A DNA stretch of 12,556 nucleotides, from positions 1-12,556 of the forward strand of contig JBHIAT010000108.1 in assembly GCA_046758705.1 (NCBI GenBank), read 5' to 3'. The stretch comes from Candidatus Bipolaricaulia bacterium (lineage in GTDB: Bacteria; Bipolaricaulota; Bipolaricaulia; JBHIAT01). This document shows positions 1-12,556 of this stretch, in pieces. Every line of letters starts with the position of its first letter. The first letter of the stretch is position 1. Made by a program: the position numbers and the translations under genes. Under the pieces are notes generated by a model. That model searched no databases. It worked only from the letters and a program-made list of their open reading frames with translations, and was not told the DNA's origin.

Positions 1-2
1 TC

Positions 3-842
3 CAGGGATATATGTTCATCCTGCCCTGCCTGTTGATGTTGCTGCTCGTCCTGGGGTTCCCCGCGTTTATGGCGGTACTGAACAGCTTCACACCGATTTG
101 GTCCGAGGTTAAGACGTTCACCACCCAAAACTACGTGAAGCTCGCCAAGGATGCGCTCTTTTGGAACGCCCTGGCAAAAACCCTCATCTTTGTCGGAGGG
201 ACTGTGTTCCTACACCTCGTCGTGGGGTTGGCCGTCGCTGTAGCGCTGAACGCACAAATCAAGGCAAGGCGGTTTTTCCGGGTGGTGGCCATCCTCCCCT
301 GGACCGTGCCGGATGTGATCTCCGGCCTGGTCTGGCGCTTCATGTACAATCCCACCTCAGGTATCATCAACGACCTGTTGTTCCGGATGAGGGTGACCAA
401 CAACTACATCGAGTGGCTGGCCGACCCTAAGTTGGCCCTGCCCAGCGTGATCTTCGCGGACGTATGGCGCGGCTACCCGTTCGTGATGATCATCCTGCTG
501 GCGGGATTACAGGCGATCCCTCGGGAACTTTATGAGGCAGCCAAGATGGACGGTGCTTCGGTGTTTAAAGAGTTCCGTTACATCACCATCCCCAGCCTCA
601 AAAGAATAATCCTCATTGCGGCGGCTTTGGACATAATCTGGCAGTTCAGACGGTTTGGCCTCGTTTACAACATGACCTTGGGAGGTCCCGGCCACGCCAC
701 CGAAATCCTGTCTCTATATGTCTACAAGCAATATTTCAGGTACTTTAACTTCGAATATGCCTCGGCGATCGCCGTGGTGATGGCCGTCATCATGCTGGCC
801 ATTAGCTTTCCCTATGTGCGCATGATCGTTCGGAGGGTCTGA
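3..842 (+). CDS. Carbohydrate ABC transporter (CUT1) permease, MalF/UgpA-like; probably 5'-truncated by the window edge
   Basis: Multiple hydrophobic segments, 'ILPWTVPDVISGLVWRFMYNPTSGIIN', 'DVWRGYPFVMIILLAGLQAIP' and the EAA loop 'ELYEAAKMDGAS'. The frame is open upstream of ATG 12 (cag gga tat atg = QGYMFILP, resembling the usual GYLFILP first-helix motif), so the real start likely lies left of the window. Confidence 0.93.
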   Translation, partial: QGYMFILPCLLMLLLVLGFPAFMAVLNSFTPIWSEVKTFTTQNYVKLAKDALFWNALAKTLIFVGGTVFLHLVVGLAVAVALNAQIKARRFFRVVAILPWTVPDVISGLVWRFMYNPTSGIINDLLFRMRVTNNYIEWLADPKLALPSVIFADVWRGYPFVMIILLAGLQAIPRELYEAAKMDGASVFKEFRYITIPSLKRIILIAAALDIIWQFRRFGLVYNMTLGGPGHATEILSLYVYKQYFRYFNFEYASAIAVVMAVIMLAISFPYVRMIVRRV

Positions 843-1678
843 TGAGGAGGAAATTGAGCCCCGGTATTATCATCATCTACCTGTTCTTGGCCGTGATCTT
901 TTTGTATAACATCGTCCCGTTTGTCTGGATGGGGTTTACCTCCCTGAAGACCGACAAAGAGGCCTACGCCATCCCTCCCACTCTCTGGCCCCAACAGCCC
1001 ACGCTTGAGGACGGGTACATTCAGGTGCTCGTGTGGACGAACTTCCCCCGCTTCTTCTTGAACAGCACCATTATCTCTTTGAGTACCGCTTTGCTGTCCA
1101 CGTTTATCGGATCGCTGGCCGGTTACGGCTTTTCCCGCTTCAACTTTCGGGGACGCGCGACGTTGATCGGGGTGATCTTAGCCAGCCAAATGCTCCCTGG
1201 AGTGCTTCTGGTCGGGCCATACTTCAAAATGCTCGCCAGGATCGGTCTCTACAACACCTACCCAGGCTTGATCCTGGCGTTCACCACCATCACCTTGCCG
1301 TTTAGCACCTGGATGCTCAAGGGCTTTACAGACACCGTGCCTGATGAGCTGGACCAGGCAGCTCTGATCGACGGTTGTACCCGACTCGGCGCCTATTTCA
1401 GGGTGATCCTGCCTGCGATCGCCCCCGGCATGGTGGCAACCGTGATCTTCGCGTTCTTGCTGGCTTGGGGGGATCTGCTTTGGGTGCTGGTTCTGACCAG
1501 CGGCGAGGCCATGACCACAGTCACGCTCGGACTCACCCGCTTGGTCACCCAGTTTCGCATCATCTGGCCTCAACTGATGGCCGGTTCTGTGGTCGCGGCG
1601 CTACCACCCATCATATTGTACCTGATTTTGCAGAACTATCTGGTTAAGGGCCTCACCGGCGGGGCGGTGAAAGAATAG
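842..1678 (+). CDS. Carbohydrate ABC transporter (CUT1) permease, MalG/UgpE-like
   Basis: 'PFVWMGFTSLK', 'FLNS', 'LAGYGFSRFNFRG', EAA-like loop 'PDELDQAALIDGCTRLGAYFRVILP', 'WPQLMAGSVVAALPPIILYLILQNYLVKGLTGGAVKE'. TGATG stop/start overlap with the upstream permease. Confidence 0.95.
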   Translation: MRRKLSPGIIIIYLFLAVIFLYNIVPFVWMGFTSLKTDKEAYAIPPTLWPQQPTLEDGYIQVLVWTNFPRFFLNSTIISLSTALLSTFIGSLAGYGFSRFNFRGRATLIGVILASQMLPGVLLVGPYFKMLARIGLYNTYPGLILAFTTITLPFSTWMLKGFTDTVPDELDQAALIDGCTRLGAYFRVILPAIAPGMVATVIFAFLLAWGDLLWVLVLTSGEAMTTVTLGLTRLVTQFRIIWPQLMAGSVVAALPPIILYLILQNYLVKGLTGGAVKE

Positions 1679-1704
1679 AATAGGGGAAAGGGAGGTTCAG
1701 TAAC

Positions 1705-2451
1705 ATGAAATTGGCGGGCAAGGTGGCCCTAGTCACCGGCGCCGCCCGAGGCATAGGTGCAGCCATAGCGCTTACGCTGGCCCGGGAAGGGGCGGACGTC
1801 GTCGTCAACGATGTGGACTGGGAAGGTGCCCAACGGGTGGCAAACAAGATTGAAAAACTGGGGCGCAAAGCTAAGGCCATCCCGGCCGACGTCTCCCAAC
1901 GCGAAGCGGTCCAACGGTTGGTGAGCGATGCCCTCTCCTTCTTTGGCAGGATCAATATCCTCGTCAACAACGCCGGGATCATCCGGCGGGGAACCTTCGT
2001 TGAGCACAGTCCACAGGAGTGGGAGGAGGTGCTTAAGATCAACCTGGGAGGAACGTTCAACTGCGCCCATCAGGTGGTCCCCGTTATGATCAAACAGGGA
2101 GCCGGGAAGATCATCAATATCTCCTCGGTAGCGGGCAAGATCGGAGATATCGCCGCTGCCCCGTCCTACGGGACCTCCAAGGGCGCGATCAACGCCTTTA
2201 CCAAATCTCTGGCACGGGATTTAGCCCGTTATGGGATCAACGTGAACGCCGTAGCCCCGCATGCCATTGAGACCGAAATGAGTCGTGAGTGGTCTGAGGA
2301 GAAGCGCCGGGGGATTGTAGAGGCCATTCCGTTAAAGAGGCTGGGGAAACCACAAGACGTGGCCGAAGCGGTTGCGTTTCTCGCCTCTGACGCCGCAGAC
2401 TTCATCACCGGCGAGATCATCGACGTCAACGGCGGATACCTGATGGATTAA
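1705..2451 (+). CDS. Classical SDR oxidoreductase (FabG-like fold), probably NAD(H)-preferring
   Basis: TGAARGIG Rossmann motif, NNAG, catalytic 'NISS' and YGTSK, C-terminal 'ITGEIIDVNGG'. RBS GGAGGT at 1691-1696. Asp at the end of beta-2 (VVVND). Confidence 0.93.
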   Translation: MKLAGKVALVTGAARGIGAAIALTLAREGADVVVNDVDWEGAQRVANKIEKLGRKAKAIPADVSQREAVQRLVSDALSFFGRINILVNNAGIIRRGTFVEHSPQEWEEVLKINLGGTFNCAHQVVPVMIKQGAGKIINISSVAGKIGDIAAAPSYGTSKGAINAFTKSLARDLARYGINVNAVAPHAIETEMSREWSEEKRRGIVEAIPLKRLGKPQDVAEAVAFLASDAADFITGEIIDVNGGYLMD

Positions 2452-2455
2452 CACC

Positions 2456-3229
2456 ATGACATATCAGGGGATTAGCATAGCGGGCAAAGTGGCGGTGGTG
2501 ATCGGGGGGACCGGTGGGATCGGCCAGGCTATTGCACTGGGGATGGTCCGTGAGGGGGCCTCGGTCATCCCCACAAGCCGAAACCTTGACCGGGTGAAAC
2601 AGGCGGTCAATCTGATCACGCAGCACGGGGGCAGGTCCCTGGTCTGCCCGGTGGATACCACAGACGAAGCCAGCCTTCAGGAGCTTCGCACGAACGTGAT
2701 CGAGGAATTTGGCAGAGTGGATATCTTGGTCAACTCTGCCGGAATCCACCTCAGAAAGCCGACGATTGAAACCACGGAGGCGGAGTGGAACACGGTGCTA
2801 GACATCAATCTTACCGGGCCATTTCTCGCCTGCAAGGTCATCGGGCAAACCATGATCACCCAAGGTAGGGGTAAGATCATCAACGTGGCCTCGGTGGCCT
2901 CGTTTGTCTCGCTGTTCGAGGCTCCTGCGTACTGTGCTAGCAAGGCAGGACTGTTGCAGTTGACCCGCTCTCTGGCCCAGGAATGGGCCAGGTACAACGT
3001 AAACGTCAATGCCATCGTCCCTGGCTTCTTCTTGACGTTGCTGAACAGAGAGATTCTGGAGAAGGATCCGGAGCGGCGCAGTCTGATCGAGGGGAAGACC
3101 CCGATGGGACGACTCGGGGATGCTGAGGAGCTCGTCGGTGCGGCGGTATACTTGGCCTCCGATGCCGCCGATTTTGTCACCGGGGCGGCAATCTCGGTCG
3201 ATGGGGGATTTTTAACAGCGGGGGTTTGA
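2456..3229 (+). CDS. Classical SDR oxidoreductase (gluconate 5-dehydrogenase/KduD-like), probably NADP(H)-preferring
   Basis: GGTGGIG, NSAG, 'NVAS', YCASK, 'LTRSLAQEWA', 'PGFFLT', 'TPMGRLG..EELVGAAVYLASDAADFVTG..ISVDGG'. Starts 4 bp after the previous stop. Confidence 0.92.
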   Translation: MTYQGISIAGKVAVVIGGTGGIGQAIALGMVREGASVIPTSRNLDRVKQAVNLITQHGGRSLVCPVDTTDEASLQELRTNVIEEFGRVDILVNSAGIHLRKPTIETTEAEWNTVLDINLTGPFLACKVIGQTMITQGRGKIINVASVASFVSLFEAPAYCASKAGLLQLTRSLAQEWARYNVNVNAIVPGFFLTLLNREILEKDPERRSLIEGKTPMGRLGDAEELVGAAVYLASDAADFVTGAAISVDGGFLTAGV

Positions 3230-3240
3230 GCCAGCGCCCC

Positions 3241-3954
3241 TCATTTCAAGCGCTTGATCACCACGTCATAGTGAGCCCGCATTGCCTCAAGAGTTGCCTC
3301 AAAATCTCGTTGCTCAAGGGCGGCAAACAGCCGCTGATGGGCAACTAGGGTCTCCTGCGCCCGGGACCTGTCCAATACGTAATACTCCAAGCGCTCCTCC
3401 TGCAAGAGTTCCATCACCCGAACCAGATAATGGATGAGGCGGAGCAAAATCGGGTTCCGGGCAGCCTTGGCGAGCGCGAGGTGAAAATTCATGTTCACAT
3501 CGAGATAGCGCTCATAATCTTGAGACGCGACCGCTTCCTCCATCTGCTGTAGGAGCCCCTTCAATTGGGCAATCTCCCCATCGCTCGCCCGTTTGACAGC
3601 CAGACGGGCTGTCAGTTCATCCAAGGCCTTGCGGACTTCAAGGGCTTCCAGGAAGCTTCCGCTCTCGACCAAGCTGGCCAGCGCCTTCAGCTCCTCTTTG
3701 GGACTCCCCTCTGCCTTACGGACATAGGTCCCTTCCCCGTGGATGATCTCTACGATCCCCAGAAGCTCCAGAGCGCTGAGCGCCTCACGGATCGTGGTGC
3801 GACTGACCCCCAATCGTTTGGCCAACTCCCCTTCGGAAGGCAGCTTATCCCCCGGGCGATAGATCTCATTGCGGATAGCATTCTGGATCTGTTCGATCAC
3901 CCGGTCGCGCTTGCTTTTGCTGCCTAACTTCTCAAAAGGATCTCGCTGTTTCAT
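3241..3954 (-). CDS. GntR-family transcriptional regulator, FadR subfamily (FCD effector domain)
   Basis: N-terminal winged HTH 'PGDKLPSEGELAKRLGVSRTTIREALSALELLGIVEIIHGEGTYV'. FCD signatures 'LEVRKALD', 'NMNFHLALAKAARNPIL', 'AHQRLFAAL..RD', 'MRAH'. Confidence 0.95.
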   Translation of the reverse strand: MKQRDPFEKLGSKSKRDRVIEQIQNAIRNEIYRPGDKLPSEGELAKRLGVSRTTIREALSALELLGIVEIIHGEGTYVRKAEGSPKEELKALASLVESGSFLEALEVRKALDELTARLAVKRASDGEIAQLKGLLQQMEEAVASQDYERYLDVNMNFHLALAKAARNPILLRLIHYLVRVMELLQEERLEYYVLDRSRAQETLVAHQRLFAALEQRDFEATLEAMRAHYDVVIKRLK

Positions 3955-3981
3955 CCCCGCTTCTTCCAGATAGAAGCTTCA

Positions 3982-4017
3982 GGATGGGACAGACTCCTGG
4001 GAGAGCCTGTCCCATCC
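3982..4017 (-). terminator. Strong GC-rich stem-loop between the SBP gene and the regulator gene (mRNA stabiliser or partial terminator; no U-tract)
   Basis: Perfect 11-bp inverted repeat GGATGGGACAG (3982-3992) / CTGTCCCATCC (4007-4017). On the - strand transcript it extends by a G-U pair and CTC/GAG to about 15 bp. It lies about 35 nt downstream of the SBP stop. Confidence 0.6.
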
Positions 4018-4052
4018 GATTCAGCATCAGTCAAGTTTACGAAGCACACAGG

Positions 4053-5297
4053 TCAACACAAGTCGGTCACCACATCATCGCCAAAGGAACGATCGGCGAC
4101 GAGGATCACCTGGGCTTGGGAGTAGGTCGCCACCCCGGTGCGCATGTCCGCCTGCCCACACGGGAGGAAACCGTAAGTTCCATAAGGCAAATCAAACTTC
4201 GCCCCCGAGAGGATATGGTTGGTAACCGTCCGCGCATTGACGGAGTTTGCGGCTTCGATCGCTTGTTTGACCAGTTGTACACTCCCCCAGCCCCAGCCGT
4301 TGTTCCGGGTGGCCGGTCGGCCACGTCTGCCGATGAAGGCATTGTTCATCGCTTTCGCTCCTGGCTCTGGCTCAACCCGAGGGAAGGTGCGCAAATTCGT
4401 CCCATTGTCGAAGACCCAGGGGAAGAAGAAGCCATCCGCTTTGCCCGCCTCAGCGACCGCTGATTTGAAGGAGACGTCGTTGAGCAAGTCACTCCCATAG
4501 AACGTCTGGGTCAGATCCAGCTCCCGGTACTGATTAGCCAGGTTGATCTCCTCGAAGGCGAGCCCAATCGCCAGCAGGGCCTCGGCTTCCGAAGCCTTAA
4601 CTTTGGTCAGCTCTGGGGTGAAATCGGACTTAAACGGGGTGGTGAACTCCTTCTGAATGATCTCTCCCCCCAATTGGTTTAAGACCTTCTCGAACTCCTC
4701 GACCATGGAGCGACCGAAGTCCGTGTTTTGCCCAATGGCGAAGAACCTCTTGTCTCCATTGACTGAAGCGGCGTACTTGGCCAGCGGCGCCATCTCGGTT
4801 TTGGCCTGGGGGCCCAAGCGAACCGACCGGACTGCGTTAGCCTGCCGGCGCGCTTCTCCGGTGAGAGTCGTGGCAAAGGCAAAGACGATTTGGGGAATTC
4901 CGGCAGCCGCGAAGATGGGCTGCTCCGCTAACGCAGCTGAACTACAGAAATCCCCCATCACAAAGTCTGCATCGATCAACCTCCGCGCGACCCTGGCACC
5001 CTCATCGGGATTGCACTTGGAGTCTTCGAAGGCCAGCTCGATCTGGACCTCGCCAGCGATACCCCCCTCCCCGTTGATGAGATCTCGAGCCAGCTCAGCT
5101 CCATCTTTGACCTCACGTCCCTCCCGAGCGACCGCCCCGGTCAGGGGAAAGACCCCGCCGATCTTAATGGAGGAGGACAACTGAGCTCCAAACGCTCCCC
5201 GGCTCAGTGCTCCTCCAATCGTCAATCCTACTATACCACCGCCTGCATACTGGAGAAACTTCCTCCGACTGATCTGTCCTTTGGTTCCATCCAACAT
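4053..5297 (-). CDS. ABC transporter solute-binding protein, LivJ/LivK (HAAT, periplasmic binding protein type 1) family, with twin-arginine signal peptide
   Basis: 'IKIGGVFPLTGAVAREG..V.DGAELA.D.INGEGGI.G', 'EDSKCNP', 'MGDFCSS', 'TDFGRS', 'DFTPELTKVKAS'. N-terminal 'SRRKFLQ' plus a hydrophobic stretch and AFG-A. RBS AGGAGGT on the - strand at 5312-5306. Confidence 0.92.
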   Translation of the reverse strand: MLDGTKGQISRRKFLQYAGGGIVGLTIGGALSRGAFGAQLSSSIKIGGVFPLTGAVAREGREVKDGAELARDLINGEGGIAGEVQIELAFEDSKCNPDEGARVARRLIDADFVMGDFCSSAALAEQPIFAAAGIPQIVFAFATTLTGEARRQANAVRSVRLGPQAKTEMAPLAKYAASVNGDKRFFAIGQNTDFGRSMVEEFEKVLNQLGGEIIQKEFTTPFKSDFTPELTKVKASEAEALLAIGLAFEEINLANQYRELDLTQTFYGSDLLNDVSFKSAVAEAGKADGFFFPWVFDNGTNLRTFPRVEPEPGAKAMNNAFIGRRGRPATRNNGWGWGSVQLVKQAIEAANSVNARTVTNHILSGAKFDLPYGTYGFLPCGQADMRTGVATYSQAQVILVADRSFGDDVVTDLC

Positions 5298-5298
5298 G

Positions 5299-5308
5299 GG
5301 TTATAACC
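5299..5308. promoter_or_regulatory. Candidate GntR-family operator palindrome GGTTATAACC
   Basis: Perfect 10-bp palindrome fitting the GT-N(x)-AC GntR consensus, overlapping the SBP ribosome-binding region. The core GTTATAA recurs at 5345-5351 over the -10 elements. Confidence 0.4.
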
Positions 5309-5322
5309 TCCTTCGTCCTTGT

Positions 5323-5352
5323 TTGTTTGATGAACCTCTCTGAAGTTATAAT
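5323..5352 (+). promoter_or_regulatory. Putative sigma70-type promoter for the livH...amidohydrolase operon
   Basis: Perfect -10 TATAAT at 5347-5352, with a weak -35 TTGTTT at 5323-5328 (18-bp spacer). Confidence 0.5.
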
Positions 5353-5377
5353 ACAACCGACATCATATATCCGTCAA
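5348..5377 (-). promoter_or_regulatory. Putative sigma70-type promoter for the SBP-regulator operon
   Basis: On the - strand: TTGACG (5377-5372), 18-bp spacer, TATTAT (5353-5348). Each hexamer is a 5/6 match to consensus. Confidence 0.6.
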
Positions 5378-5435
5378 GAGGGAGAGCGGTTACCTGGACT
5401 AACAGACTTGAGGAGTTAACGGGGGTTGACTTCAG

Positions 5436-6314
5436 ATGGATCTGAGTAGTTTCTTGTTCTTTCAGTCTTTGATCAGCGGTCTGTTCATCGCCAGCGTCTA
5501 CGCGCTTGTGGCTCTTGGCCTGACACTGATCTTCGGGGTGATGGACATTGCCGACTTCGCCCAAGGCGCGCTCTACATGCTGGGGGCTTACGTGAGTTTC
5601 TACGCGCTCGATTTCTTGGGCATCCCCTATTTCTTCACTTTGCCGTTGGCGATGCTGTTTGTGGGAATCGTCGCCATCTCGAACAATCTCCTCGTTTATC
5701 GACCGTTGCGCCGGGCGGGAGGGGCGGCCACCTTTATCGCCGCCTTAGGCATTCTTCTCATCATCCAAAACCTGGCCTTGATCGTCTTTGGGTCCGATTT
5801 CCGGATTCTCCGCTCCCCGTTTGGCGAAGGCAAGCTGATCCTGGGGGAGATCATTCTCACCCACCACAAGCTCTTTGTCATGGGAGCTACAGTCATTTTA
5901 ATCCTGGCCGTCTGGCTCTTCTTGCGGCGGACCAAGATGGGAAAGGCACTGAGGGCAATGTCCCAGAATCGAGTTGGGGCAGCGCTGGTGGGCATCAACA
6001 CCAATCGGATTGCTATCGTGACGTTTGCCCTTGCAGGTGCCCTGGCTGGGGGAGCCGGCGCGCTCATCTCCCCGATTCGCCCTTTCGATCCTAACATCGG
6101 GACTCTGGTCATTTTAAAATCTTTTGCCATCGTGATCTTTGGTGGTATGGGAAGCGTCCAGGGAGCGCTCGTAGGCGCGTTGATCCTCGGGGTGGCGGAG
6201 ACGATGACCGCAGCCTTTCTCGCCTCGGAGTTCAGTGATTTGGCGGCCTTTGTGCTTCTGATCTTGATCCTGTTGTTCCGCCCTCAGGGACTCTTTGGAG
6301 GAAGGGCTGCCTGA
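5436..6314 (+). CDS. livH: Branched-chain amino acid-type (HAAT) ABC transporter permease, LivH-like
   Basis: 'YALVALGLTLIFGVMDIADFAQGALYMLGAY', 'RTKMGKALRAMSQN...AALVGIN', 'KSFAIVIFGGMGSVQGA', 'LLFRPQGLFG'. Confidence 0.93.
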   Translation: MDLSSFLFFQSLISGLFIASVYALVALGLTLIFGVMDIADFAQGALYMLGAYVSFYALDFLGIPYFFTLPLAMLFVGIVAISNNLLVYRPLRRAGGAATFIAALGILLIIQNLALIVFGSDFRILRSPFGEGKLILGEIILTHHKLFVMGATVILILAVWLFLRRTKMGKALRAMSQNRVGAALVGINTNRIAIVTFALAGALAGGAGALISPIRPFDPNIGTLVILKSFAIVIFGGMGSVQGALVGALILGVAETMTAAFLASEFSDLAAFVLLILILLFRPQGLFGGRAA

Positions 6315-7330
6315 TGAGCATAGATAGAAGTCGGAAGCCGGAGATACGACGAGCCATTCAGAAGACCCAGCTCCTTCTCGCCACCGGGACGATCCTCCTC
6401 GGCTTGAGCCTTCCTTTTCTGTTCACCAGCCCTTCCCACCGCAATCTGCTCATCCTGATTGCCATCAACGTAATCCTGGTAGCCAGTCTGGATCTGCTCA
6501 TTGGATATACCGGCCTCATGTCCTTAGGTCACGGCGGCTTCTGGGGGATCGGAGCCTATACCTCAGCCTTGCTGGTCATGAGAGCGGATATTCCCTTCCT
6601 CGGAGGATTGGTGGGGGCAGCCCTCGTGGCGATGGCCTCTGGAGCCATCATTGGCTATCCCTTTTTAAAGCTCAGAGGGCATTATTTCGTGGTGGTGACC
6701 TTCATCACCGCCATCATCTTGACACTCTTATTTACGAGCCTCATCAGCGTTACCCGAGGCCCGATGGGGCTGCCAGGAATCCCCTTCCCCAAGGTGGAGA
6801 TCCCCGGCCTCTTCTCTTACACCTTTAACCCGTTCAGATCCACGTTAAGCTATTACTATTTGGTGTTGGTGTTTGTTTTTTTGGCCCTGATCGTAAAATC
6901 TAGAATCGTCCGTTCCAAGATGGGACGCGCTCTCACCGCCATCAAAGAGGACGAAGATTTAGCTCAATCGATCGGGATTCACACCCATCGGTACAAGCTG
7001 CTTATCTTCGCGATCAGTGCAGGCTTTGCCGGACTGGCTGGCTCTCTCTATGCCCATTACGTAACCTTTATCGGCCCGGATTCCTTTACGTTCATCGAAT
7101 CGTTCAACCTGTTCGTCATGAACCTGGTTGGGGGAGCGGGAACACTTATGGGACCGGTGATCGGTCCGACGTTCCTGACCCTGGTGGAGGAGTTTGCCCG
7201 GGTCTTTTCTCCCGTCATCGCTGAAATCGCCTTCGGCGTCCTCCTCATCGTTACCATCACCTTCCTGCCCAGTGGGATCGTCGGGGGAATCCGGCAGCTA
7301 TGGGGGCGACTGACCGATGGCAAGGGGTGA
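6314..7330 (+). CDS. livM: HAAT ABC transporter permease, LivM-like
   Basis: 'SLDLLIGYTGLMSLGHGGFWGIGAY', 'LKLRGHYF', 'TRGPMGL', 'SKMGRALTAIKEDEDLAQSIGI...YKL', 'VGGAGTLMGPVIG', 'LPSGIVG'. TGATG overlap with livH. Confidence 0.93.
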   Translation: MSIDRSRKPEIRRAIQKTQLLLATGTILLGLSLPFLFTSPSHRNLLILIAINVILVASLDLLIGYTGLMSLGHGGFWGIGAYTSALLVMRADIPFLGGLVGAALVAMASGAIIGYPFLKLRGHYFVVVTFITAIILTLLFTSLISVTRGPMGLPGIPFPKVEIPGLFSYTFNPFRSTLSYYYLVLVFVFLALIVKSRIVRSKMGRALTAIKEDEDLAQSIGIHTHRYKLLIFAISAGFAGLAGSLYAHYVTFIGPDSFTFIESFNLFVMNLVGGAGTLMGPVIGPTFLTLVEEFARVFSPVIAEIAFGVLLIVTITFLPSGIVGGIRQLWGRLTDGKG

Positions 7331-7339
7331 ATAACAGGA

Positions 7340-8167
7340 GTGGACAGAGGGAAGATCTTGGAGGTCAAGGATTTAACCAAGAATTTTGGGGGCTTTCGAG
7401 CGGTGAAGCAGTTGAGCTTTACCCTCGATCGCGAGGAGATCTTAGGCTTGGTCGGCCCCAACGGCGCAGGCAAGACCACAACCTTTAACCTGATCACCGG
7501 CTTTCTCAAGCCGACTGCTGGAAAGATCTTCTATGATGGACGGGAGATCACCGGGCTGCCCCCCCACGGGCGGGCACGGCTGGGTTTGGTCCGCACCTTC
7601 CAGAACACGAAAGTCTTTGCCCATCTGACCGTGGAGAAGAACATCTGGATTGGTTGCCATATGCGGGAACGAGGTGGCTTCAAACGGGTGCTGTTGGGCA
7701 CCCCTCACGCCGAGCGGAACGATCTGGAGAGTCGGGTTGAGCAGATCCTTACGTTCACCGATCTGCAGGAGCTGCGTGACAAGATCGCTGACGACCTGCC
7801 CTATGGGGAGCAGCGCGCGCTCGGGATCGCCATTGCTCTGGGAGCCGATCCCAAGCTTTTGCTGCTTGATGAGCCGTTCGCCGGAATGAACCCCGCAGAG
7901 GCATCACGGAGCATGGCTTTGATCCACAAGATCCGAGACGCCGGCACAACCGTTCTGTTAGTGGATCATCACATGGATACCCTGGTGAAACATTGTGATC
8001 GTCTTGTGGTGATGCACCACGGGGAGAAGCTGGCCGAAGGGAGGCCGAAACAGGTCAAGGAGGATCCCCAGGTCATTGAGGTCTACTTGGGAGGCACCGA
8101 GTTGATAGAACTGAGACCGGAAGGCAAATTGGACCCGGATCGATCGGAGCAGGAGTCAGGTGAATGA
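7340..8167 (+). CDS. livG: HAAT ABC transporter ATP-binding protein, LivG-like (GTG start; in-frame TTG at 7358 is an alternative)
   Basis: Walker A GPNGAGKTT, 'RTFQN', LivG-type signature 'LPYGEQR', Walker B 'LLLLDEPFAGMN', C-terminal 'VIEVYLG'. Confidence 0.93.
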   Translation: MDRGKILEVKDLTKNFGGFRAVKQLSFTLDREEILGLVGPNGAGKTTTFNLITGFLKPTAGKIFYDGREITGLPPHGRARLGLVRTFQNTKVFAHLTVEKNIWIGCHMRERGGFKRVLLGTPHAERNDLESRVEQILTFTDLQELRDKIADDLPYGEQRALGIAIALGADPKLLLLDEPFAGMNPAEASRSMALIHKIRDAGTTVLLVDHHMDTLVKHCDRLVVMHHGEKLAEGRPKQVKEDPQVIEVYLGGTELIELRPEGKLDPDRSEQESGE

Positions 8168-8871
8168 GCCTGTTGGAGCTTAGAGAAGTTCACGTCTATT
8201 ATGGGAGGATCTCCGCGTTACAGAGCGTCTCCCTCGAGCTCAAGCAGGGAGAACTGGTCGCGCTCATCGGGGCGAACGGCGCGGGGAAGACGACGACGTT
8301 GCGGACGATCTCCGGATTGATCCGTCCGCGAACGGGACAGATCCTGTTCCGCGATCAAGAGATCACCCGCCTTTCTCCGGAAGCCATCGTCCGTTCAGGC
8401 ATTGCCCACTGCCCTGAAGGCCGGGAACTCTTTCCGGATATGATGGTGCTGGAGAACCTGGAGATGGGAGCCTATACTAGGAAAGATGGCCGAATTGCGG
8501 AGGACCTGGAACGTGTCTACCGTCTTTTCCCTAGGCTTAAGGAGCGTTGGGATCAAAAAGCGGGGAGCCTCAGCGGTGGGGAGCAGCAGATGCTGGCCAT
8601 CGGTCGGGCTCTGATGTCCGGGCCCAGTTTAATCTTATTCGATGAGCCGTCTTTGGGCCTCGCTCCCTATCTCGTTCAAGAGGTTGCCCGGGCGATCCAG
8701 AGATTGAACGCTGAAGGGGTCAGTGTCTTGCTCGTCGAACAGAACGTACACATCGCGTTTGCGATCGCTCAGCGCGGCTATGTGATGGAGAACGGTCGGA
8801 TCGTGCTGGCGGGGCCGATAGATGAACTCCAGGCGGATGAACGGGTGAAGCGCGCTTATCTAGGAGGCTAA
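8164..8871 (+). CDS. livF: HAAT ABC transporter ATP-binding protein, LivF-like
   Basis: Walker A GANGAGKTT, 'CPEGRELF', 'LFPRLKER', signature LSGGEQQMLAIGRALM, 'DEPSLGLAP', 'VEQN', 'VKRAYLG'. ATGA overlap with livG. Confidence 0.95.
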   Translation: MSLLELREVHVYYGRISALQSVSLELKQGELVALIGANGAGKTTTLRTISGLIRPRTGQILFRDQEITRLSPEAIVRSGIAHCPEGRELFPDMMVLENLEMGAYTRKDGRIAEDLERVYRLFPRLKERWDQKAGSLSGGEQQMLAIGRALMSGPSLILFDEPSLGLAPYLVQEVARAIQRLNAEGVSVLLVEQNVHIAFAIAQRGYVMENGRIVLAGPIDELQADERVKRAYLGG

Positions 8872-8875
8872 CGGC

Positions 8876-9820
8876 ATGCAGGAGCGGAGGAACGATCGGA
8901 ACGCAAGGTTGCGGGCTCGCATTGCTGAGGACAAGATCCTGCAGGTGCCGGGGGCGTACGATGGCCTGAGCGCCAAGCTGGTAGAGCACGCTGGGGCGGA
9001 GGCCGTCTATCTGTCCGGTTCGGGGGTGGCTGCCAGTCTCGGCCTGCCCGATCTCGGCCTAGTCAGTTTCACCGAGATGCTCGAGCGAGCGAACCAAATT
9101 GCCGAGGTCGTGTGCATCCCGGTGGTTACAGACGGGGACACCGGCTACGGCGGCCCCCTCAACGTCGTGCGCACCGTGCGGGCCTACGAGAAGGTCGGAG
9201 TATCGGCTATCCAGATTGAAGATCAAGTCTTTCCAAAACGCTGCGGACATTTTGAGGCCAAGCAGGTGATTCCGCTCGAGGAGATGCTTGCCAAGATCTA
9301 CGCCGCGCTTGACGCGCGATGGGATGAGAATTTCCTGATCATCGCCCGCACAGACGCTCGGGCCACCCACGGTCTAGAAGAAGCGATCCGACGCGGCCAC
9401 GCCTTCGCCGAGGCCGGTGCGGACATCGTCTTCGTTGAAGCCCCCCAAAGCCGAGAAGAACTGGCGCGCATCGCGCAGGAGATCGATGCCCCGCTCCTGG
9501 TGAATCTGCCAGAGGGGGGTAAGACTCCGCTGCTCACCGCACAACAGCTCGAGCACCTGGGATATGACATGGTCATTCATGCCAATACTGCTCTGCGGGC
9601 TGCCGCCAAGCAGATGCTCCACGTGCTGCGCTATCTTCTCAAACACGGAACCTCTCAAGGGATCGTCGATCAGCTGATCACCTTCGAGGATCGGGACGAA
9701 CTGACAGGCCTGCCGGAGCTTCAAGCACGAGAAACGGCGTACACCCGGGCGGCTGGCTTGGAGCAGGAAGAGCAGGGCAAGAGAGAGCGAGGAAAGCAAG
9801 GAAAGGGGATGTCTTCATGA
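8876..9820 (+). CDS. Isocitrate lyase/PEP mutase superfamily C-C lyase (2-methylisocitrate lyase / 2,3-dimethylmalate lyase / oxaloacetate hydrolase-like)
   Basis: 'PGAYD', 'YLSGSG..ASLGLPDLG', 'DGDTGYG', catalytic 'IEDQVFPKRCGH' (Cys codon 9242-9244), 'IARTDAR', 'FVEAP', 'N..EGGKTP'. RBS AGGAGG at 8862-8867. Confidence 0.92.
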   Translation: MQERRNDRNARLRARIAEDKILQVPGAYDGLSAKLVEHAGAEAVYLSGSGVAASLGLPDLGLVSFTEMLERANQIAEVVCIPVVTDGDTGYGGPLNVVRTVRAYEKVGVSAIQIEDQVFPKRCGHFEAKQVIPLEEMLAKIYAALDARWDENFLIIARTDARATHGLEEAIRRGHAFAEAGADIVFVEAPQSREELARIAQEIDAPLLVNLPEGGKTPLLTAQQLEHLGYDMVIHANTALRAAAKQMLHVLRYLLKHGTSQGIVDQLITFEDRDELTGLPELQARETAYTRAAGLEQEEQGKRERGKQGKGMSS

Positions 9821-11064
9821 ACGCGGGCATGACGATCGCGGAGCAGATCCTCGCCCGGGCAGCGGGGCGTGAGCGTGTCCGGCCGGGAGAGATCATGGTG
9901 GCGCGCGTCGACCGCCTGCTCATTACCGGCCGACGGTTCGCCAACTTCGCCCAAACGGCGGGGCGCGTCTGGGACCCGGAGCGTGTCGTGGTGGTCTTCG
10001 ACCACGTGGCACCTCCGCCGACTGTCGCGGCGGCCGATGACTTCGTCCATGCCCGGCGCATGGCTAAGAAGCTGGGCATTCGGCATTGGTACGAGATCGG
10101 CCGGGGGATCTGCCACCAGGTCTTCCTCGAGGAGGGTTTCGCCCGACCTGGAGAGCTCGTGGTGGGCTCCGATTCCCACACCTGCACGGCCGGAGCCTTC
10201 AACGTCGCGGCCCGGGGAATCAACGTCGAAACACCCTATGTGCTGGCCTATGGCGAGACGTGGTTCCGCGTGCCGGAGTCCATCGTATTCACCTTAACAG
10301 GTGAGTTTCAGCCCGGCGTCTACTCCAAAGATGTCATGCTCCACATCGCCGGGACCTACGGTGGAGATGTAGGTTCACATCGGTCGATCGAATTCATGGG
10401 CCCCGCCCTCCAGAGAATGAGCCTGGAAAGTCGGATCGTGTTGGCCAACATGGGCATCGAGCTGGGCGCCAAGTTTGCTATTCTGCCCGCGGACCAAGTC
10501 GTGATCGATTACTTGCAGGCGCGCACCGAGGAACCCTTTGCGCCCGTAAGTCCCGATCCCGATGCTCACTACGCCGAAATCCATGAGCTAGACGTCTCAA
10601 AACTCGAACCCCAGGTGGCCTGTCCGCACGATGTGAGCAACGTCAAGCCGGTGAACGAAGTCAAGGAGGTTAAAATCGACCAAGCGTTCATCGGCTCCTG
10701 TACCAACGCGCGATATGAAGATCTGGAAGTGGCCGCGCGCATCCTCAACGGGCACCAGATCCACCTTGACACGCGGCTGATCGTCACCCCGGCCTCCAAA
10801 CAGGTGTACGATCAGGCACTGAAGACCGGAGTCATCGAGATCCTGTCGGAAGCGGGCGCGGTGATCACCAGCTCTGACTGCGGGGCCTGTCCAGGCTTCC
10901 ACATGGGCGTGCTGGGAGACGGCGAAGTCTGCATCGCCTCCCAGAACCGCAACTATAAGGGCCGTATGGGAAACCCAACCGCGCAAATCTATCTGGCCTC
11001 GGCGGCGACCGTGGCTGCATCAGCCGTTGAGGGCCGGATTGCCGACCCGAGAGAATATCTATGA
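9817..11064 (+). CDS. Aconitase-family [4Fe-4S] hydro-lyase large subunit (LeuC/HacA/DmdA-like, divergent)
   Basis: 'MTIAEQILARAAG', 'FDH', 'GICH', 'DSHTCT', cluster ligands GSCTN (Cys 10699) and CGAC (10879, 10888), 'NRNYKGRMG', 'YLAS'. ATGA overlap with the lyase. Confidence 0.93.
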   Translation: MNAGMTIAEQILARAAGRERVRPGEIMVARVDRLLITGRRFANFAQTAGRVWDPERVVVVFDHVAPPPTVAAADDFVHARRMAKKLGIRHWYEIGRGICHQVFLEEGFARPGELVVGSDSHTCTAGAFNVAARGINVETPYVLAYGETWFRVPESIVFTLTGEFQPGVYSKDVMLHIAGTYGGDVGSHRSIEFMGPALQRMSLESRIVLANMGIELGAKFAILPADQVVIDYLQARTEEPFAPVSPDPDAHYAEIHELDVSKLEPQVACPHDVSNVKPVNEVKEVKIDQAFIGSCTNARYEDLEVAARILNGHQIHLDTRLIVTPASKQVYDQALKTGVIEILSEAGAVITSSDCGACPGFHMGVLGDGEVCIASQNRNYKGRMGNPTAQIYLASAATVAASAVEGRIADPREYL

Positions 11065-11591
11065 AGGTGAAGGGGGAACGTGCGATGTCGACGCTTTACC
11101 GAGGTCGCGTCTGGAAGTTCGGGGACCACATTAACACCGACCTGATCATGCCTGGGGACTCCATGTACGGCAAGGTGCCCAAGGAAGAGATGAAGTACCA
11201 CGCGTTCAAGGCCATCCGACCGGAGTTTGCCCGCCAGGTCCGGTCCGGGGACATTATCGTAGCCGGGAAGAACTTCGGTAGCGGCTCCAGCCGCCCCGCC
11301 ACCAGGATTCTCAAAGATTTGGGTATCAGCTGTATCGTCGCTGAATCGTTTGCACAGCTCTTCTTTCGCAACTCGATCAACATGGGCTATCCGGTGTTGA
11401 TCTGCACAGGGGTCACCGGGTTATTCGAGGACGGCGATGAGGCAGAGGTCGAACTGCTCAGCGGTCGTGTCACGAATCTTAAGACAGGCCAGTCTTTGCA
11501 GGCGGAGCCTCTGCCACCGTTCATTCTTAGACTGATCGAGGCTGGAGGCATCCTGGCCTTACTCAAGCGCGGCGAGCGACTGAAAACCTGA
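11061..11591 (+). CDS. Aconitase-family hydro-lyase small (swivel) subunit (LeuD/HacB/DmdB-like); true start may be ATG 11085
   Basis: 'GRVWKFGDHINTDLIMPG', 'GDIIVAGKNFGSGSSR', 'AESFAQLFFRNSINMG', 'LIEAGGIL'. ATG 11085 has a G-rich RBS (GAAGGGGG) upstream, while ATG 11061 overlaps the previous stop. Confidence 0.92.
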   Translation: MKVKGERAMSTLYRGRVWKFGDHINTDLIMPGDSMYGKVPKEEMKYHAFKAIRPEFARQVRSGDIIVAGKNFGSGSSRPATRILKDLGISCIVAESFAQLFFRNSINMGYPVLICTGVTGLFEDGDEAEVELLSGRVTNLKTGQSLQAEPLPPFILRLIEAGGILALLKRGERLKT

Positions 11592-11642
11592 GCAGATCGT
11601 ATGTCAAAGACCACAAGACCGTCACGAAAGGAGAAACGCGAT

Positions 11643-12556
11643 ATGCCGCAGTATGACTTGGCTGTGATCAACGGCACGATGATCATTCCCTACGTCGGCC
11701 CCATACGTGGCGACATCGGCATCCGGGACGGACACATCGTGGCCCTGTGCGATTCCATCGACGCCGCACAGGCCGAGGACGTCCTCGATGCCAAGGATCG
11801 GGTGATCTTGCCCGGGGCGGTGGATTCCCACTTCCACCTGGGCATTTACCGCTCCTTGTCCGATGATGTCCTAAGCGAGACTGCCTCTGCCTTGGTTGGA
11901 GGCGTAACCACGATCATTAGCTACTTCAGAACCGGCCGTCACTACCTTGACAAGAGTGGACCGTACCGTGAGATCTTCCCCGAAGTGCTTACCCTCACTG
12001 ACGGACGCGCGTACACCGATTACAGCTACCACATCGCCATCATGACTACGGACCAGCTCGACGAGGTCGACTGGTTGGTTCGAGAGCAGGGCGTGGGATC
12101 CTTCAAGTACTACATGTTCTACAAGGGATTGAACCTTACCGCTGACTCCACACGCGGCAGCGATTACATCATGGCCGAGACATACGACTTAGGCCATCTC
12201 TACCTCTTCATGCAGCAGGTCGCGGCCGCCTCTCGAAACTATGGCTCTCACGGCCGCATCTCCTTGAGCCTCCACTGCGAGCACGCGGAGCTCATCCGGG
12301 TTTTCATCGAGGAGGTGAAGCGCTTAGGGTTGACCACCCTGGAGGGCTACCACCGGTCACGGCCGCCTCTCACCGAACGTCTCTCCATGGCGGAGGCGGT
12401 CATCCTGGGAGACGTAACCCGCTGCCCCCTCAACCTGCTTCACCTGAGCAGCCGTGAAGCCGTCACGACAGCCAGTGAGGCCAAGCGAAACTATCCGCAC
12501 CTGGACATCCGCCTGGAAACCACGGTCCATCACCTTGCCCTGACCCACGCCACGGC
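11643..12556 (+). CDS. Binuclear-metal cyclic amidohydrolase (dihydropyrimidinase/hydantoinase/allantoinase/dihydroorotase-like), 3'-truncated by the window edge
   Basis: Hand translation gives an unbroken frame: MPQYDLAVINGTMIIP...DIGIRDGHIVAL...ILPGAVDSHFHLG (HxH at 11829/11835)...ETASALVGGVTTIISY...GVGSFKYYM (Lys 12105)...LHCEH (His 12273)...SRPPLTE...LLHLSS (His 12441)...ETTVHHL. RBS AAGGAG at 11628-11633. An in-frame ATG at 11601 lacks a comparable RBS. Confidence 0.92.
   Translation, partial: MPQYDLAVINGTMIIPYVGPIRGDIGIRDGHIVALCDSIDAAQAEDVLDAKDRVILPGAVDSHFHLGIYRSLSDDVLSETASALVGGVTTIISYFRTGRHYLDKSGPYREIFPEVLTLTDGRAYTDYSYHIAIMTTDQLDEVDWLVREQGVGSFKYYMFYKGLNLTADSTRGSDYIMAETYDLGHLYLFMQQVAAASRNYGSHGRISLSLHCEHAELIRVFIEEVKRLGLTTLEGYHRSRPPLTERLSMAEAVILGDVTRCPLNLLHLSSREAVTTASEAKRNYPHLDIRLETTVHHLALTHAT

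Follow-up and report, generated by a model that had tools for sequence, protein, structure and literature searches.

A cyclic amidohydrolase of an uncharacterized subfamily linked to a LeuCD-type hydratase and a PrpB-like lyase in a putative catabolic operon of Bipolaricaulia

Introduction

What would a bacterium degrade with an operon that encodes a HAAT-family importer, a carbon-carbon lyase, a LeuCD-type hydratase and a cyclic amidohydrolase? These genes stand together on contig JBHIAT010000108.1 of a Candidatus Bipolaricaulia bacterium (GenBank assembly GCA_046758705.1). The window analyzed here is the whole of that contig, 12,556 bases with 14 open reading frames (ORFs) in the ORF listing, and is called C108 of genome G000 below. 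A reading made from the sequence alone had suggested that the encoded proteins import a cyclic compound, open its ring, hydrate the product and cleave it. We hold, with a little more confidence than doubt, that the locus is an accessory operon, probably induced by its substrate, for the catabolism of a cyclic amide (imide or lactam) with a branched or substituted C4-dicarboxylate core. We rate its novelty as the combination of familiar enzyme families into an undescribed catabolic module around an uncharacterized amidohydrolase subfamily.

Results

Eight genes on the + strand of the window encode, in order, LivH, LivM, LivG, LivF, the lyase, a LeuC-like and a LeuD-like protein and the amidohydrolase (Table 1). 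Their junctions are, successively, a 1-nucleotide (nt) overlap, a 9-nt gap, a 4-nt overlap, a 4-nt gap, two 4-nt overlaps and a 9-nt gap. The last gap widens to 48 nt if the amidohydrolase starts at 11640, which is likelier than 11601 because homologs begin 13 codons later. The sequence-only reading had described eight co-directional genes with overlaps or gaps of 51 bp or less, and the ORF listing agrees (overlaps of 1-4 nt, gaps of 4-48 nt). That reading had also set the operon opposite a binding protein and a FadR-type regulator; a Peripla_BP_6 protein and a GntR/FCD protein are indeed encoded on the - strand, across a divergent spacer of 138 bp. The ORFs were annotated by Pfam and NCBIfam scans, the latter with curated equivalog cut-offs. 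As the same reading had noted, no leuA/leuB, prpC/prpD or pyr gene is found among them (0 of 14 ORFs match).

Does the operon end with the contig? The last 55 nt of the window (12502-12556) are identical to the end of contig C120 (11677-11731), which is their only other match in the genome, and the overlap is in frame. A full-length homolog, P0003, aligns to the window with its residues 2-304 and to C120 with residues 288-484, and the operon therefore continues past the window. C120 (11729-11121, - strand) supplies the C-terminal part of the amidohydrolase and completes it to about 490 residues. On the same strand follow a Rid-family (Ribonuc_L-PSP) gene and an Ldh_2 dehydrogenase gene; the next gene is a convergent thioredoxin-NHL gene. 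The join is supported by the most similar locus in another genome, L004, where the amidohydrolase and Rid genes follow each other in the same order. The 55-nt overlap looks like an assembler k-mer overlap, which here gives a valid in-frame join, and the 55-bp "repeats" at other contig ends of this genome may also be assembly features.

The amidohydrolase is, by sequence and modeled structure, a hydantoinase-fold enzyme of an uncharacterized subfamily that NCBIfam does not name. Its binuclear-metal ligands (H63/H65, K155, H211, H267 and D340) show little or no variation among 20 close and 116 diverse sequences; the window encodes the HxH motif, the Lys and the two further His, and the ligand Asp lies on C120. 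A model of P0003, which is 80% identical, was built on the 116 diverse sequences and reached a predicted local distance difference test score (pLDDT) of 95.4. It replaced an earlier model of this family made from 20 close relatives, which was unusable (pLDDT 58.9). In Foldseek the best matches to the P0003 model are the D-hydantoinases 1k1d and 1nfg (TM 0.84-0.90, E 6e-44, 26-28% identity). The enzyme shares with D-hydantoinase, dihydropyrimidinase and allantoinase (1k1d, 1nfg, 3hm7) the fold, the set of metal ligands and a Tyr five residues after the carboxylated Lys, the latter kept as in D-hydantoinases. Unlike them, it has its own conserved insert of about 15 residues after the Lys/Tyr motif (YKGLNLTxDSTR...YDLGHLY). 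P0003 scores below the cut-offs for dihydropyrimidinase (TIGR02033, 237.2 against 393), allantoinase (TIGR03178, 240.2 against 358) and dihydroorotase (TIGR00857, 234.2 against 279), at much the same distance from each, and the halves on the window and C120 likewise fall under all NCBIfam cut-offs. Relatives in the ESM Atlas occur only in clusters named "dihydroorotase family protein / putative allantoinase". A word-based protein search returned 3,128 relatives at E <= 1e-10, the best 120 of which are 66-83% identical over the part encoded in the window. The active-site motifs are nearly invariant across four clades, and the substrate is therefore probably the same or very similar everywhere.

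The LeuC-like protein belongs to the LeuC/HacA type of [4Fe-4S] hydro-lyases. It passes the subfamily model NF001614 (516 > 385) and falls short of the equivalogs LEU2 (TIGR02083, 420.8 against 610.65), leuC (TIGR00170, 203 against 560) and HacA. Among solved structures the isopropylmalate/citramalate isomerase 4nqy matches it best. All six sequences of an alignment share the three cluster cysteines C295, C355 and C358, as expected of the aconitase family. The protein has a 4-residue deletion ("LITG--RR") where five of the six aligned relatives read MHDxSGP/SHDTTTP; the same deletion occurs in L004 and is, judged from the alignment, probably part of an altered substrate pocket. Its small-subunit partner falls into the NCBIfam family named "LeuD/DmdB" and below TIGR02084 (147 < 246). 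Its specificity loop is unusual and reads PGDSMYGKVP, where the isopropylmalate/citramalate isomerase 3vba has RYLVYTKP and the homoaconitase 2pkp has PYLRTTDP. The loop of the window is common to L004 and another locus, L007; LeuD proteins of an Armatimonadota type read G(K/A)(F/Y)L--DRP. Each loop type holds a positive residue, K in the window type and R in the Armatimonadota type. The pair is thus not of the leucine type: its equivalog scores are low, no leuA/leuB stands beside it, and its loop reads GDSMYGK, not YLVY. A metagenome scan with the window LeuC gave 24 loci, only two of them close (72-73%; the contigs of L004 and L007), and the other matches, about 42% identical, are generic LeuC/HacA proteins.

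The lyase belongs to the isocitrate lyase (ICL)/phosphoenolpyruvate mutase superfamily. In alignment with 1zlp, 3eoo and 1o5q it has the PKRCGH loop with the catalytic Cys, DGDTGYGG and EDQ, all invariant in nine cluster-linked lyases. The best solved relative is petal death protein (1zlp, 235 bits), ahead of PrpB methylisocitrate lyases at 195-220 bits. It resembles petal death protein in the KRCGH loop, the acidic Mg ligands and the "EGG" loop, but keeps an Arg at alignment position 241 where petal death protein has Tyr. This Arg we take to be the PrpB contact to a distal carboxylate. The protein is not a PrpB by the curated models (TIGR02317, 324.7 against 354.4; NF008455, 266 against 353) and stands outside a prpC/prpD context. 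By analogy with homoaconitase and PrpB structure-function relationships, the charged LeuD loops and the retained lyase Arg may hint at an extra carboxylate on the substrate. The lyase gene is single-copy in G000. Among 60 genomes of the same class, only three carry a PrpB-like gene, at 43-45% identity, so that vertical conservation is absent. Because the gene is so rare among class relatives, the cluster is accessory.

Are these enzymes housekeeping proteins in an unusual setting? The genome encodes a canonical leuA-leuC-leuD set of bacterial type on contig C79 (TIGR00170, 775 bits, cut-off 560), a second synthase-LeuC/HacA-LeuD set on C54 and a dihydroorotase pyrC on C187 (TIGR00857, 365 bits, cut-off 279). 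These paralogs elsewhere, with the sub-threshold scores of the window enzymes, show that the three are not housekeeping proteins, as the sequence-only reading required.

Do the three enzymes occur together in other genomes? That reading had made its proposal depend on such co-occurrence, and we found it. In a scan of one genome per species 352 stretches matched, 293 of which encode a relative of the amidohydrolase, and the best 80 loci were kept and searched by tblastn with the window and C120 proteins. Of the 80, 16 have LeuCD and/or PrpB-like genes no farther than 10 kb from the amidohydrolase. In 12 of these the genes stand immediately upstream on its strand, and the lyase or LeuD gene starts 0.5-0.9 kb ahead of the amidohydrolase match. 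Two gene orders occur, each with its own LeuCD and lyase subfamilies. The window order (lyase, LeuC, LeuD, amidohydrolase) is seen in L004 and L007, and the order LeuC, LeuD, lyase, amidohydrolase in 10 loci (L006, L009, L011, L012, L018, L024, L025, L029, L037 and L038), some of them cut by contig ends. L004, from a metagenome-assembled genome (MAG) labeled Candidatus Bipolaricaulota, is the closest locus and carries genes for GntR, binding protein, LivHMGF, lyase, LeuC, LeuD, amidohydrolase and Rid at 54-81% identity.

The second arrangement is informative. Across these loci the amidohydrolase is 67-77% identical to that of the window. In three of Armatimonadota type (L024, L025 and L037) the amidohydrolase (67-75%), binding protein (50-52%) and LivH (61-63%) are orthologous to the window proteins, whereas LeuC, LeuD and the lyase are only 39-51% identical, stand in the other order and have the other LeuD loop. 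These LeuC partners are no closer than a paralog, because the window LeuC is itself 44% identical to its own housekeeping-type paralog on C54. From these sequence comparisons we read the second arrangement as one in which the importer and amidohydrolase were kept and the hydratase and lyase were replaced by non-orthologous counterparts. No other observation made here speaks as strongly for a functional link of the amidohydrolase with LeuCD and the lyase.

A quick maximum-likelihood tree of the amidohydrolase (LG+G4, support from the Shimodaira-Hasegawa-like approximate likelihood-ratio test, SH-aLRT, only; the window row covers 305 residues) unites Bipolaricaulota and Armatimonadota/"Sysuimicrobiota" in a clade of 17 rows (SH-aLRT 94), and 14 of the 17 show the linkage. 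As to the exceptions, the sequence of L046 begins within the gene, and FAD_binding_2 and MmgE/PrpD neighbors are found in L008 and L010. L010 is sister to L005, which carries LeuCD/lyase genes 8-10 kb upstream; about positions 300-11500 of L005 encode, on one strand, LeuC, LeuD, lyase, IclR, binding protein, LivHMGF, a flavoprotein and the amidohydrolase.

What surrounds the amidohydrolase in other phyla? Neighbors within 6 kb of the 80 amidohydrolases were called with a crude method based on third-codon-position GC (GC3), giving 867 ORFs that were clustered, and Pfam was run on cluster representatives (32 proteins in one set, 74 in another). Counted in loci out of 80, the neighbors are CoA_transf_3 (32), MmgE/PrpD (26), the cyclase-family hydrolase PF04199 (23), DUF4437/cupin (16), AMP-binding (14), HMGL-like (14), HpcH/CitE-like (12), short-chain dehydrogenase/reductase (SDR; 12), IclR (7), isochorismatase (7), FAD_binding_2 (5), acyl-CoA dehydrogenase (ACAD; 5) and MaoC (4). 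A same-strand unit recurs in Actinomycetota and Chloroflexota: coenzyme A (CoA)-transferase, in part a CitE-like lyase, cyclase, MmgE/PrpD and amidohydrolase. The best NCBIfam matches among the neighbors are succinate-glutarate or succinyl-CoA:mesaconate CoA-transferase, RipC/Ccl, RipB/Ich, TcuA/flavocytochrome c and HMG-CoA lyase. Judged from its families, the set may form a second, CoA-dependent module for hydrating and cleaving a branched dicarboxylate, and it resembles itaconate/methylsuccinate catabolism. Processing of the amidohydrolase product would then fall either to a CoA-independent pair (LeuCD and an ICL-type lyase, as in the window) or to a CoA-dependent set.

The resemblance can be put in detail. 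According to PMC12290011, the pseudomonad itaconate/methylsuccinate cluster comprises Ict, Ich, Ccl, Mcd and an MmgE/PrpD protein that acts as methylsuccinate isomerase, and the known MmgE/PrpD substrates all share a succinate substructure. The Actinomycetota/Chloroflexota loci share with that cluster a family-III CoA-transferase, a CitE/RipC-like lyase, MmgE/PrpD, a MaoC/RipB-like hydratase and ACAD. The published cluster differs in having no amidohydrolase or cyclase-family gene; the words "amidohydrolase" and "imide" occur 0 times in PMC12290011. The window differs from it in using the CoA-independent LeuCD and lyase pair.

Some of these loci have further features. The Actinomycetota unit is present in L047, L049, L055, L076 and others; at 5694-11452 of L055, for example, it consists of CoA-transferase III, CitE-like lyase, cyclase-family hydrolase, MmgE/PrpD and amidohydrolase genes. 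Micromonosporaceae, including cultured Actinoplanes, Dactylosporangium, Catellatospora and Micromonospora, have the same neighbors, partly divergent. An acyl-CoA oxidase, a DUF4437 cupin, an AMP-ligase and an HMG-CoA-lyase-like gene are often alongside in Actinomycetota. A flavocytochrome-c/TcuA-like FAD_binding_2 gene stands directly beside the amidohydrolase in L005, L008, L010, L014 and L052; its product could interconvert succinate-type and maleate-type skeletons.

Two BPD_transp_2 permeases, two ATPases and the Peripla_BP_6 binding protein make up a HAAT-family importer. The binding protein scores far below the LivJ/UrtA cut-offs, its best solved relative matches at only 1.6e-18, and relatives of 50-54% identity occur in L004, L007, L024, L025 and L037. 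No ligand can be assigned to the importer because all its components fall under the Liv and Urt equivalog cut-offs. The GntR/FCD protein, whose best NCBIfam matches are LldR/NanR-like and below cut-off, is likely the regulator of the locus; a gene 71% identical to it is found at the same position in L004 and L007.

Two genes follow the amidohydrolase on C120. The Rid protein reads RPALT, with Leu, where PH0854, ST0811 and RutC have PAR with the catalytic Arg (Arg105 of RidA). It groups with the Arg-less proteins 3i7t (Rv2704-like, uncharacterized, its closest solved relative) and 2ig8, and it scores 61 against the cut-off of 106 for TIGR00004, outside RidA. Lacking Arg105, it is therefore not to be read as a canonical imine deaminase. 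L004 has a 70% identical Rid gene 3' of its amidohydrolase. The second protein matches Ldh_2 over its full length (PF02615, 1.1e-127); the best NCBIfam scores, all below cut-offs, are to ureidoglycolate dehydrogenase AllD (308/302 bits, cut-off 356) and sulfolactate dehydrogenase (299). L004 lacks this gene and has a family-III CoA-transferase in its place.

Discussion

How might these parts work together? From the gene content, packing, intact catalytic residues, non-housekeeping status and linkage, we infer an order of steps, a chemistry and a class of substrate. The dedicated binding protein and the LivHMGF-type ABC importer would take up a cyclic compound, and the GntR/FCD regulator would control the operon, probably by sensing a carboxylate. 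The hydantoinase-fold, binuclear-metal amidohydrolase would open the ring to a branched di- or tricarboxylate. The LeuCD-type Fe-S hydro-lyase would hydrate or isomerize a cis-unsaturated or hydroxy di- or tricarboxylate to a 2-hydroxy-(alkyl)succinate. The Cys-dependent lyase, like PrpB and petal death protein, would then cut between C2 and C3, with a carboxylate and a 2-oxo acid (pyruvate, glyoxylate or 2-oxobutyrate) as products. The Arg-less Rid protein and the Ldh_2 2-hydroxyacid dehydrogenase would be lineage-specific accessories. Our best guess for the ring, a tentative one that we would not be surprised to see fail, is an alkyl-substituted maleimide or succinimide type or a carboxylated relative; the wider family context, read from gene neighborhoods, points to a branched C5/C6 di- or tricarboxylate skeleton. 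D-hydantoinases serve in the hydrolysis of one cyclic imide, 3-isobutylglutarimide (PMC11424739).

The scheme of import, ring opening, hydration and cleavage in the sequence-only reading thus stood in part. Its enzymes are not housekeeping ones, they co-occur, and the literature searches turned up no described pathway for them. However, the half-amidase, isochorismatase or maleate isomerase that it had hoped for downstream is not there; C120 has the Arg-less Rid and Ldh_2 genes instead. Its specific candidate substrate, dialkylmaleimides, stays speculative, attractive but of low probability.

Several observations weigh against our interpretation. First, the linkage follows clades, and since kin are not independent there are at most 3-4 independent associations; the exact gene order of the window occurs only in the L004 and L007 contigs. 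In a Rokubacteria clade (22 rows), where the amidohydrolase is 67-76% identical, 21 loci have no LeuCD or lyase neighbors, only a divergent SDR gene and HIT, protease and M16 genes. Co-occurrence at the genome level is uninformative in Rokubacteria because all five genomes considered carry 3-6 PrpB-like paralogs elsewhere. Second, the neighbor counts rest on the crude gene caller and on Pfam matches of representatives only, and the matches, including those to Ict, Ich and Ccl, lie under curated cut-offs; only an HMG-CoA lyase subfamily model is passed. Third, the window operon has no second amidase or half-amidase to free ammonia from the half-amide, and the Rid protein lacks Arg105. Nitrogen release is therefore the main gap of the scheme. 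Possible ways around it are a fast intramolecular hydrolysis, an unrecognized role of the Arg-less Rid protein, or a lactone or other nitrogen-free ring. Dialkylmaleamic acids hydrolyze very fast by neighboring-carboxyl catalysis. In other phyla, the extra hydrolases (cyclase family, isochorismatase, and M20 in five loci) could provide a second, amide-releasing step.

Could the ring be a cyclic ureide? A carboxylated hydantoin, dihydropyrimidine or (dihydro)orotate-type ring would be opened to an N-carbamoyl amino-dicarboxylate, a carbamoylase would take off the carbamoyl group, and LeuCD and the lyase would follow on a hydroxy- or dehydro-amino-dicarboxylate. The fold of the amidohydrolase and its closest solved relatives, D-hydantoinases, dihydropyrimidinases and allantoinases, speak for this route, as does the motif KVNPPIR, which resembles that of dihydroorotases. 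Five Armatimonadota-type loci (L006, L009, L018, L024 and L038) have, 3-5 kb downstream, a gene of the M20 peptidase family, to which known carbamoylases belong, and the best NCBIfam match of Ldh_2, still under its cut-off, is ureidoglycolate dehydrogenase. However, the M20 genes stand behind a separate Opp-type transporter and may belong to another operon, and Pfam finds no carbamoylase in the window or on C120. In alignment with the D-hydantoinase 1k1d, the S of WSPPLR and the N of IPNGG, taken here to be the ureide-binding substrate contacts Ser288 and Asn336, are replaced in the amidohydrolase family by N (KVNPPIR) and G/F (LPGFGG). Moreover, the CoA-transferase, Ccl and PrpD contexts fit nitrogen-free dicarboxylates better, and LeuCD and ICL-type lyases are not known to act on amino acids. 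We therefore regard a ureide as unlikely.

Alternatively, there may be no common pathway. The imported compound would be an acid of the alkylmalate, citramalate or aconitate type that LeuCD and the lyase break down, and the amidohydrolase would travel along for a separate end such as nitrogen salvage. That the amidohydrolase stands without LeuCD or lyase in 64 of the 80 loci fits this explanation, as does the uninformative co-occurrence in Rokubacteria, with their several PrpB-like paralogs. Three observations argue for a shared pathway: the tight adjacency in 12 loci and at the window junctions (overlaps of 1-4 nt, gaps of at most 48 nt), the return of the linkage, in another gene order, with LeuCD and lyase proteins that are not orthologous, and the recurrence of the amidohydrolase within a dicarboxylate hydrate-and-cleave module in other phyla. 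We consider separate functions unlikely as well.

Within the tentative class of imides, one source is of particular interest. Alkylmaleimide- and succinimide-type monopyrroles are reported as products of chlorophyll, heme and bilirubin breakdown, for example in PMC7318184 and PMC10343206. As a long shot, the amidohydrolase family might be the missing ring-opener for tetrapyrrole monopyrroles (dialkylmaleimides and hematinic-acid-type imides from chlorophyll, bacteriochlorophyll, heme and bilins), with the window as a complete CoA-independent route and the Actinomycetota/Chloroflexota operons as its CoA-dependent version. Import and imide hydrolysis would be followed by release of the amide nitrogen, spontaneous or with help from Rid, and then by LeuCD hydration of a substituted maleate or a methyl-homoaconitate-like triacid. 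PrpB-like cleavage would yield pyruvate or 2-oxobutyrate together with propionate, butyrate or glutarate. If true, this route would be the first by which microbes are known to catabolize these abundant pigment residues.

A lactone in place of the amide is very unlikely. The amidohydrolase would open an isocitrate-, homoisocitrate- or hydroxycitrate-lactone type ring, and the acid would then be isomerized and cleaved. This would explain both the missing second amidase and the Arg-less Rid protein; the positive LeuD loop residues (K/R) and the lyase Arg 241 fit an extra carboxylate, and lactonases do occur in the amidohydrolase superfamily. Yet all close structural relatives are cyclic amide hydrolases, and further phyla add amidase-type genes beside the enzyme (cyclase family at 23 and isochorismatase at 7 of the 80 loci), which points to nitrogen chemistry.

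A housekeeping or known pathway (leucine, isoleucine or lysine biosynthesis, the methylcitrate cycle, pyrimidine synthesis or nicotinate fermentation of the Eubacterium barkeri type) shares only family-level similarity with the locus and is highly improbable given the leuA-leuCD, second synthase-LeuCD and pyrC genes elsewhere, the unreached equivalog cut-offs, the window without prpC/prpD and leuA/leuB, and a PrpB-like gene in 3 of 60 class relatives.

The last of these systems nevertheless offers the nearest likeness. Nicotinate fermentation in E. barkeri, in the work of Alhapel et al. 2006, reportedly uses DmdAB (2,3-dimethylmaleate hydratase) and Dml (2,3-dimethylmalate lyase). The pairing of a LeuCD-type hydratase with an ICL-superfamily lyase is alike, compared here by description. 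The ring-opener is different: it has a hydantoinase fold and is not enamidase-like, with no enamidase among its solved relatives. For the other nicotinate-pathway partners (enamidase, 2-(hydroxymethyl)glutarate dehydrogenase/dehydratase, B12 mutase and the isomerase Mii), no assignable family was seen in the window or on C120, which counts against that pathway. The cyclic-imide pathway of Blastobacter sp. is said, from the work of Ogawa and Shimizu, to run through an imidase and a half-amidase to a dicarboxylate. The logic is the same as in the window, ring opening and then passage of a diacid to central metabolism, but the window has no half-amidase. The imidase BpIH was considered as a relative of the amidohydrolase and rejected: BpIH and HxnM are reported to be of the PuuE/polysaccharide-deacetylase type, another fold (PMC9304392). 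Among the papers that the literature searches listed, none describes this gene combination or the bacterial catabolism of alkylmaleimides or succinimides; within that scope, the cluster matches no characterized pathway, as the sequence-only reading had suggested.

Why does the identity of the ring matter? The amidohydrolase family is well conserved from Bipolaricaulota to cultured Micromonosporaceae, with no described function found. It is wired into branched-dicarboxylate modules in several phyla, which argues for an environmentally common cyclic nitrogen compound. Knowing this compound would assign a function to the family and to non-housekeeping LeuCD, PrpB-like and MmgE/PrpD paralogs that so far carry family names alone. 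It could also point to a soil source of branched C5 acids, for example methylsuccinate; the origin of acids of this type was unclear until recently, according to PMC12290011. Orthologs in culturable Actinoplanes, Dactylosporangium, Catellatospora and Micromonospora, those of the first three genera 53-60% identical, make the function testable at the bench.

Other features of the locus

Table 1. Features of the window (C108) and the Rid gene on contig C120
Feature	Position	Strand	Evidence or remark
Sugar-type ABC permease	3-842	+	Pfam/NCBIfam
Sugar-type ABC permease	842-1678	+	Pfam/NCBIfam
SDR oxidoreductase	1705-2451	+	Pfam/NCBIfam
SDR oxidoreductase	2456-3229	+	Pfam/NCBIfam
GntR regulator with FCD effector domain	3241..3954	-	Pfam GntR 8.6e-23, FCD 7.9e-26
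Inverted repeat, 15-nt arms, 6-nt loop, 93% complementary	3982..4017		Between binding-protein stop and regulator start
Peripla_BP_6 substrate-binding protein of HAAT transporter, periplasmic/extracellular	4053..5297	-	Pfam 1.2e-49
Divergent intergenic region, 138 bp	5298..5435		Between binding-protein and LivH genes
GT-N6-AC element GTTATAATAC	about 5346-5355		In divergent region
Sigma-70-like site	5377-5348	-	Promoter scan of divergent region
LivH-type permease	5436..6314	+	Pfam BPD_transp_2 5.4e-43; under LivH/UrtB cut-offs
LivM-type permease	6314..7330	+	Pfam BPD_transp_2 6.8e-46
LivG-type ATPase	7340..8167	+	Pfam ABC_tran, BCA_ABC_TP_C
LivF-type ATPase	8164..8871	+	Pfam ABC_tran; NF008626 268.9 bits against cut-off 441
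PrpB/petal-death-protein-like C-C lyase, ICL/phosphoenolpyruvate mutase superfamily	8876..9820	+	Pfam PEP_mutase 4.2e-57
LeuC/HacA-type [4Fe-4S] hydro-lyase, large subunit	9817..11064	+	Pfam Aconitase 1e-89
LeuD/DmdB-family small subunit	11061..11591	+	TIGR02087 165.2 against cut-off 108.95
Cyclic amidohydrolase, N-terminal ~305 of ~490 residues	11601 or likelier 11640..12554+, to contig end	+	Hydantoinase/dihydropyrimidinase fold
Rid-family protein	C120 10654-11124	-	Translationally coupled to amidohydrolase

The noncoding features of the window are few. The inverted repeat downstream of the binding-protein gene is a possible terminator or attenuator, to judge from its sequence. In the divergent region, the promoter scan gave 4 sites against 2.9 +/- 1.7 in shuffled sequences, which is no excess, and the terminator scan behaved likewise. 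Because these counts do not exceed those of the shuffles, the promoter elements listed in Table 1 are description only. Against Rfam, with E values up to 1 allowed, the window as a whole gave one chance-level snoRNA match and no riboswitch.

Upstream, positions 1-3229 form a + strand block that is convergent on the regulator gene. Its permeases are MalF/MalG/GlcTU-like, and the block is probably an operon of its own, for a sugar or sugar acid, that the contig start truncates. A relative of its first SDR, 40-43% identical, stands divergently beside the amidohydrolase in 12 Rokubacteria-type loci; this is an ordinary level of identity for SDRs.

Farther along C120, positions 623-5360 carry Rnf-type genes (RnfC-, RnfD- and FMN_bind-like) and genes for a Rieske protein and cytochrome b, and positions 5988-7463 an aldehyde dehydrogenase gene; like the Rnf-type genes, the latter is apparently unrelated to the operon. 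Genome G000 measures 3.7 Mb with 4.69% estimated contamination, and 59 of 60 genomes of its class measure 1.1-2.3 Mb. The assignment of C108 and C120 to this organism is provisional, although the loci closest to the operon come from MAGs labeled Bipolaricaulota.

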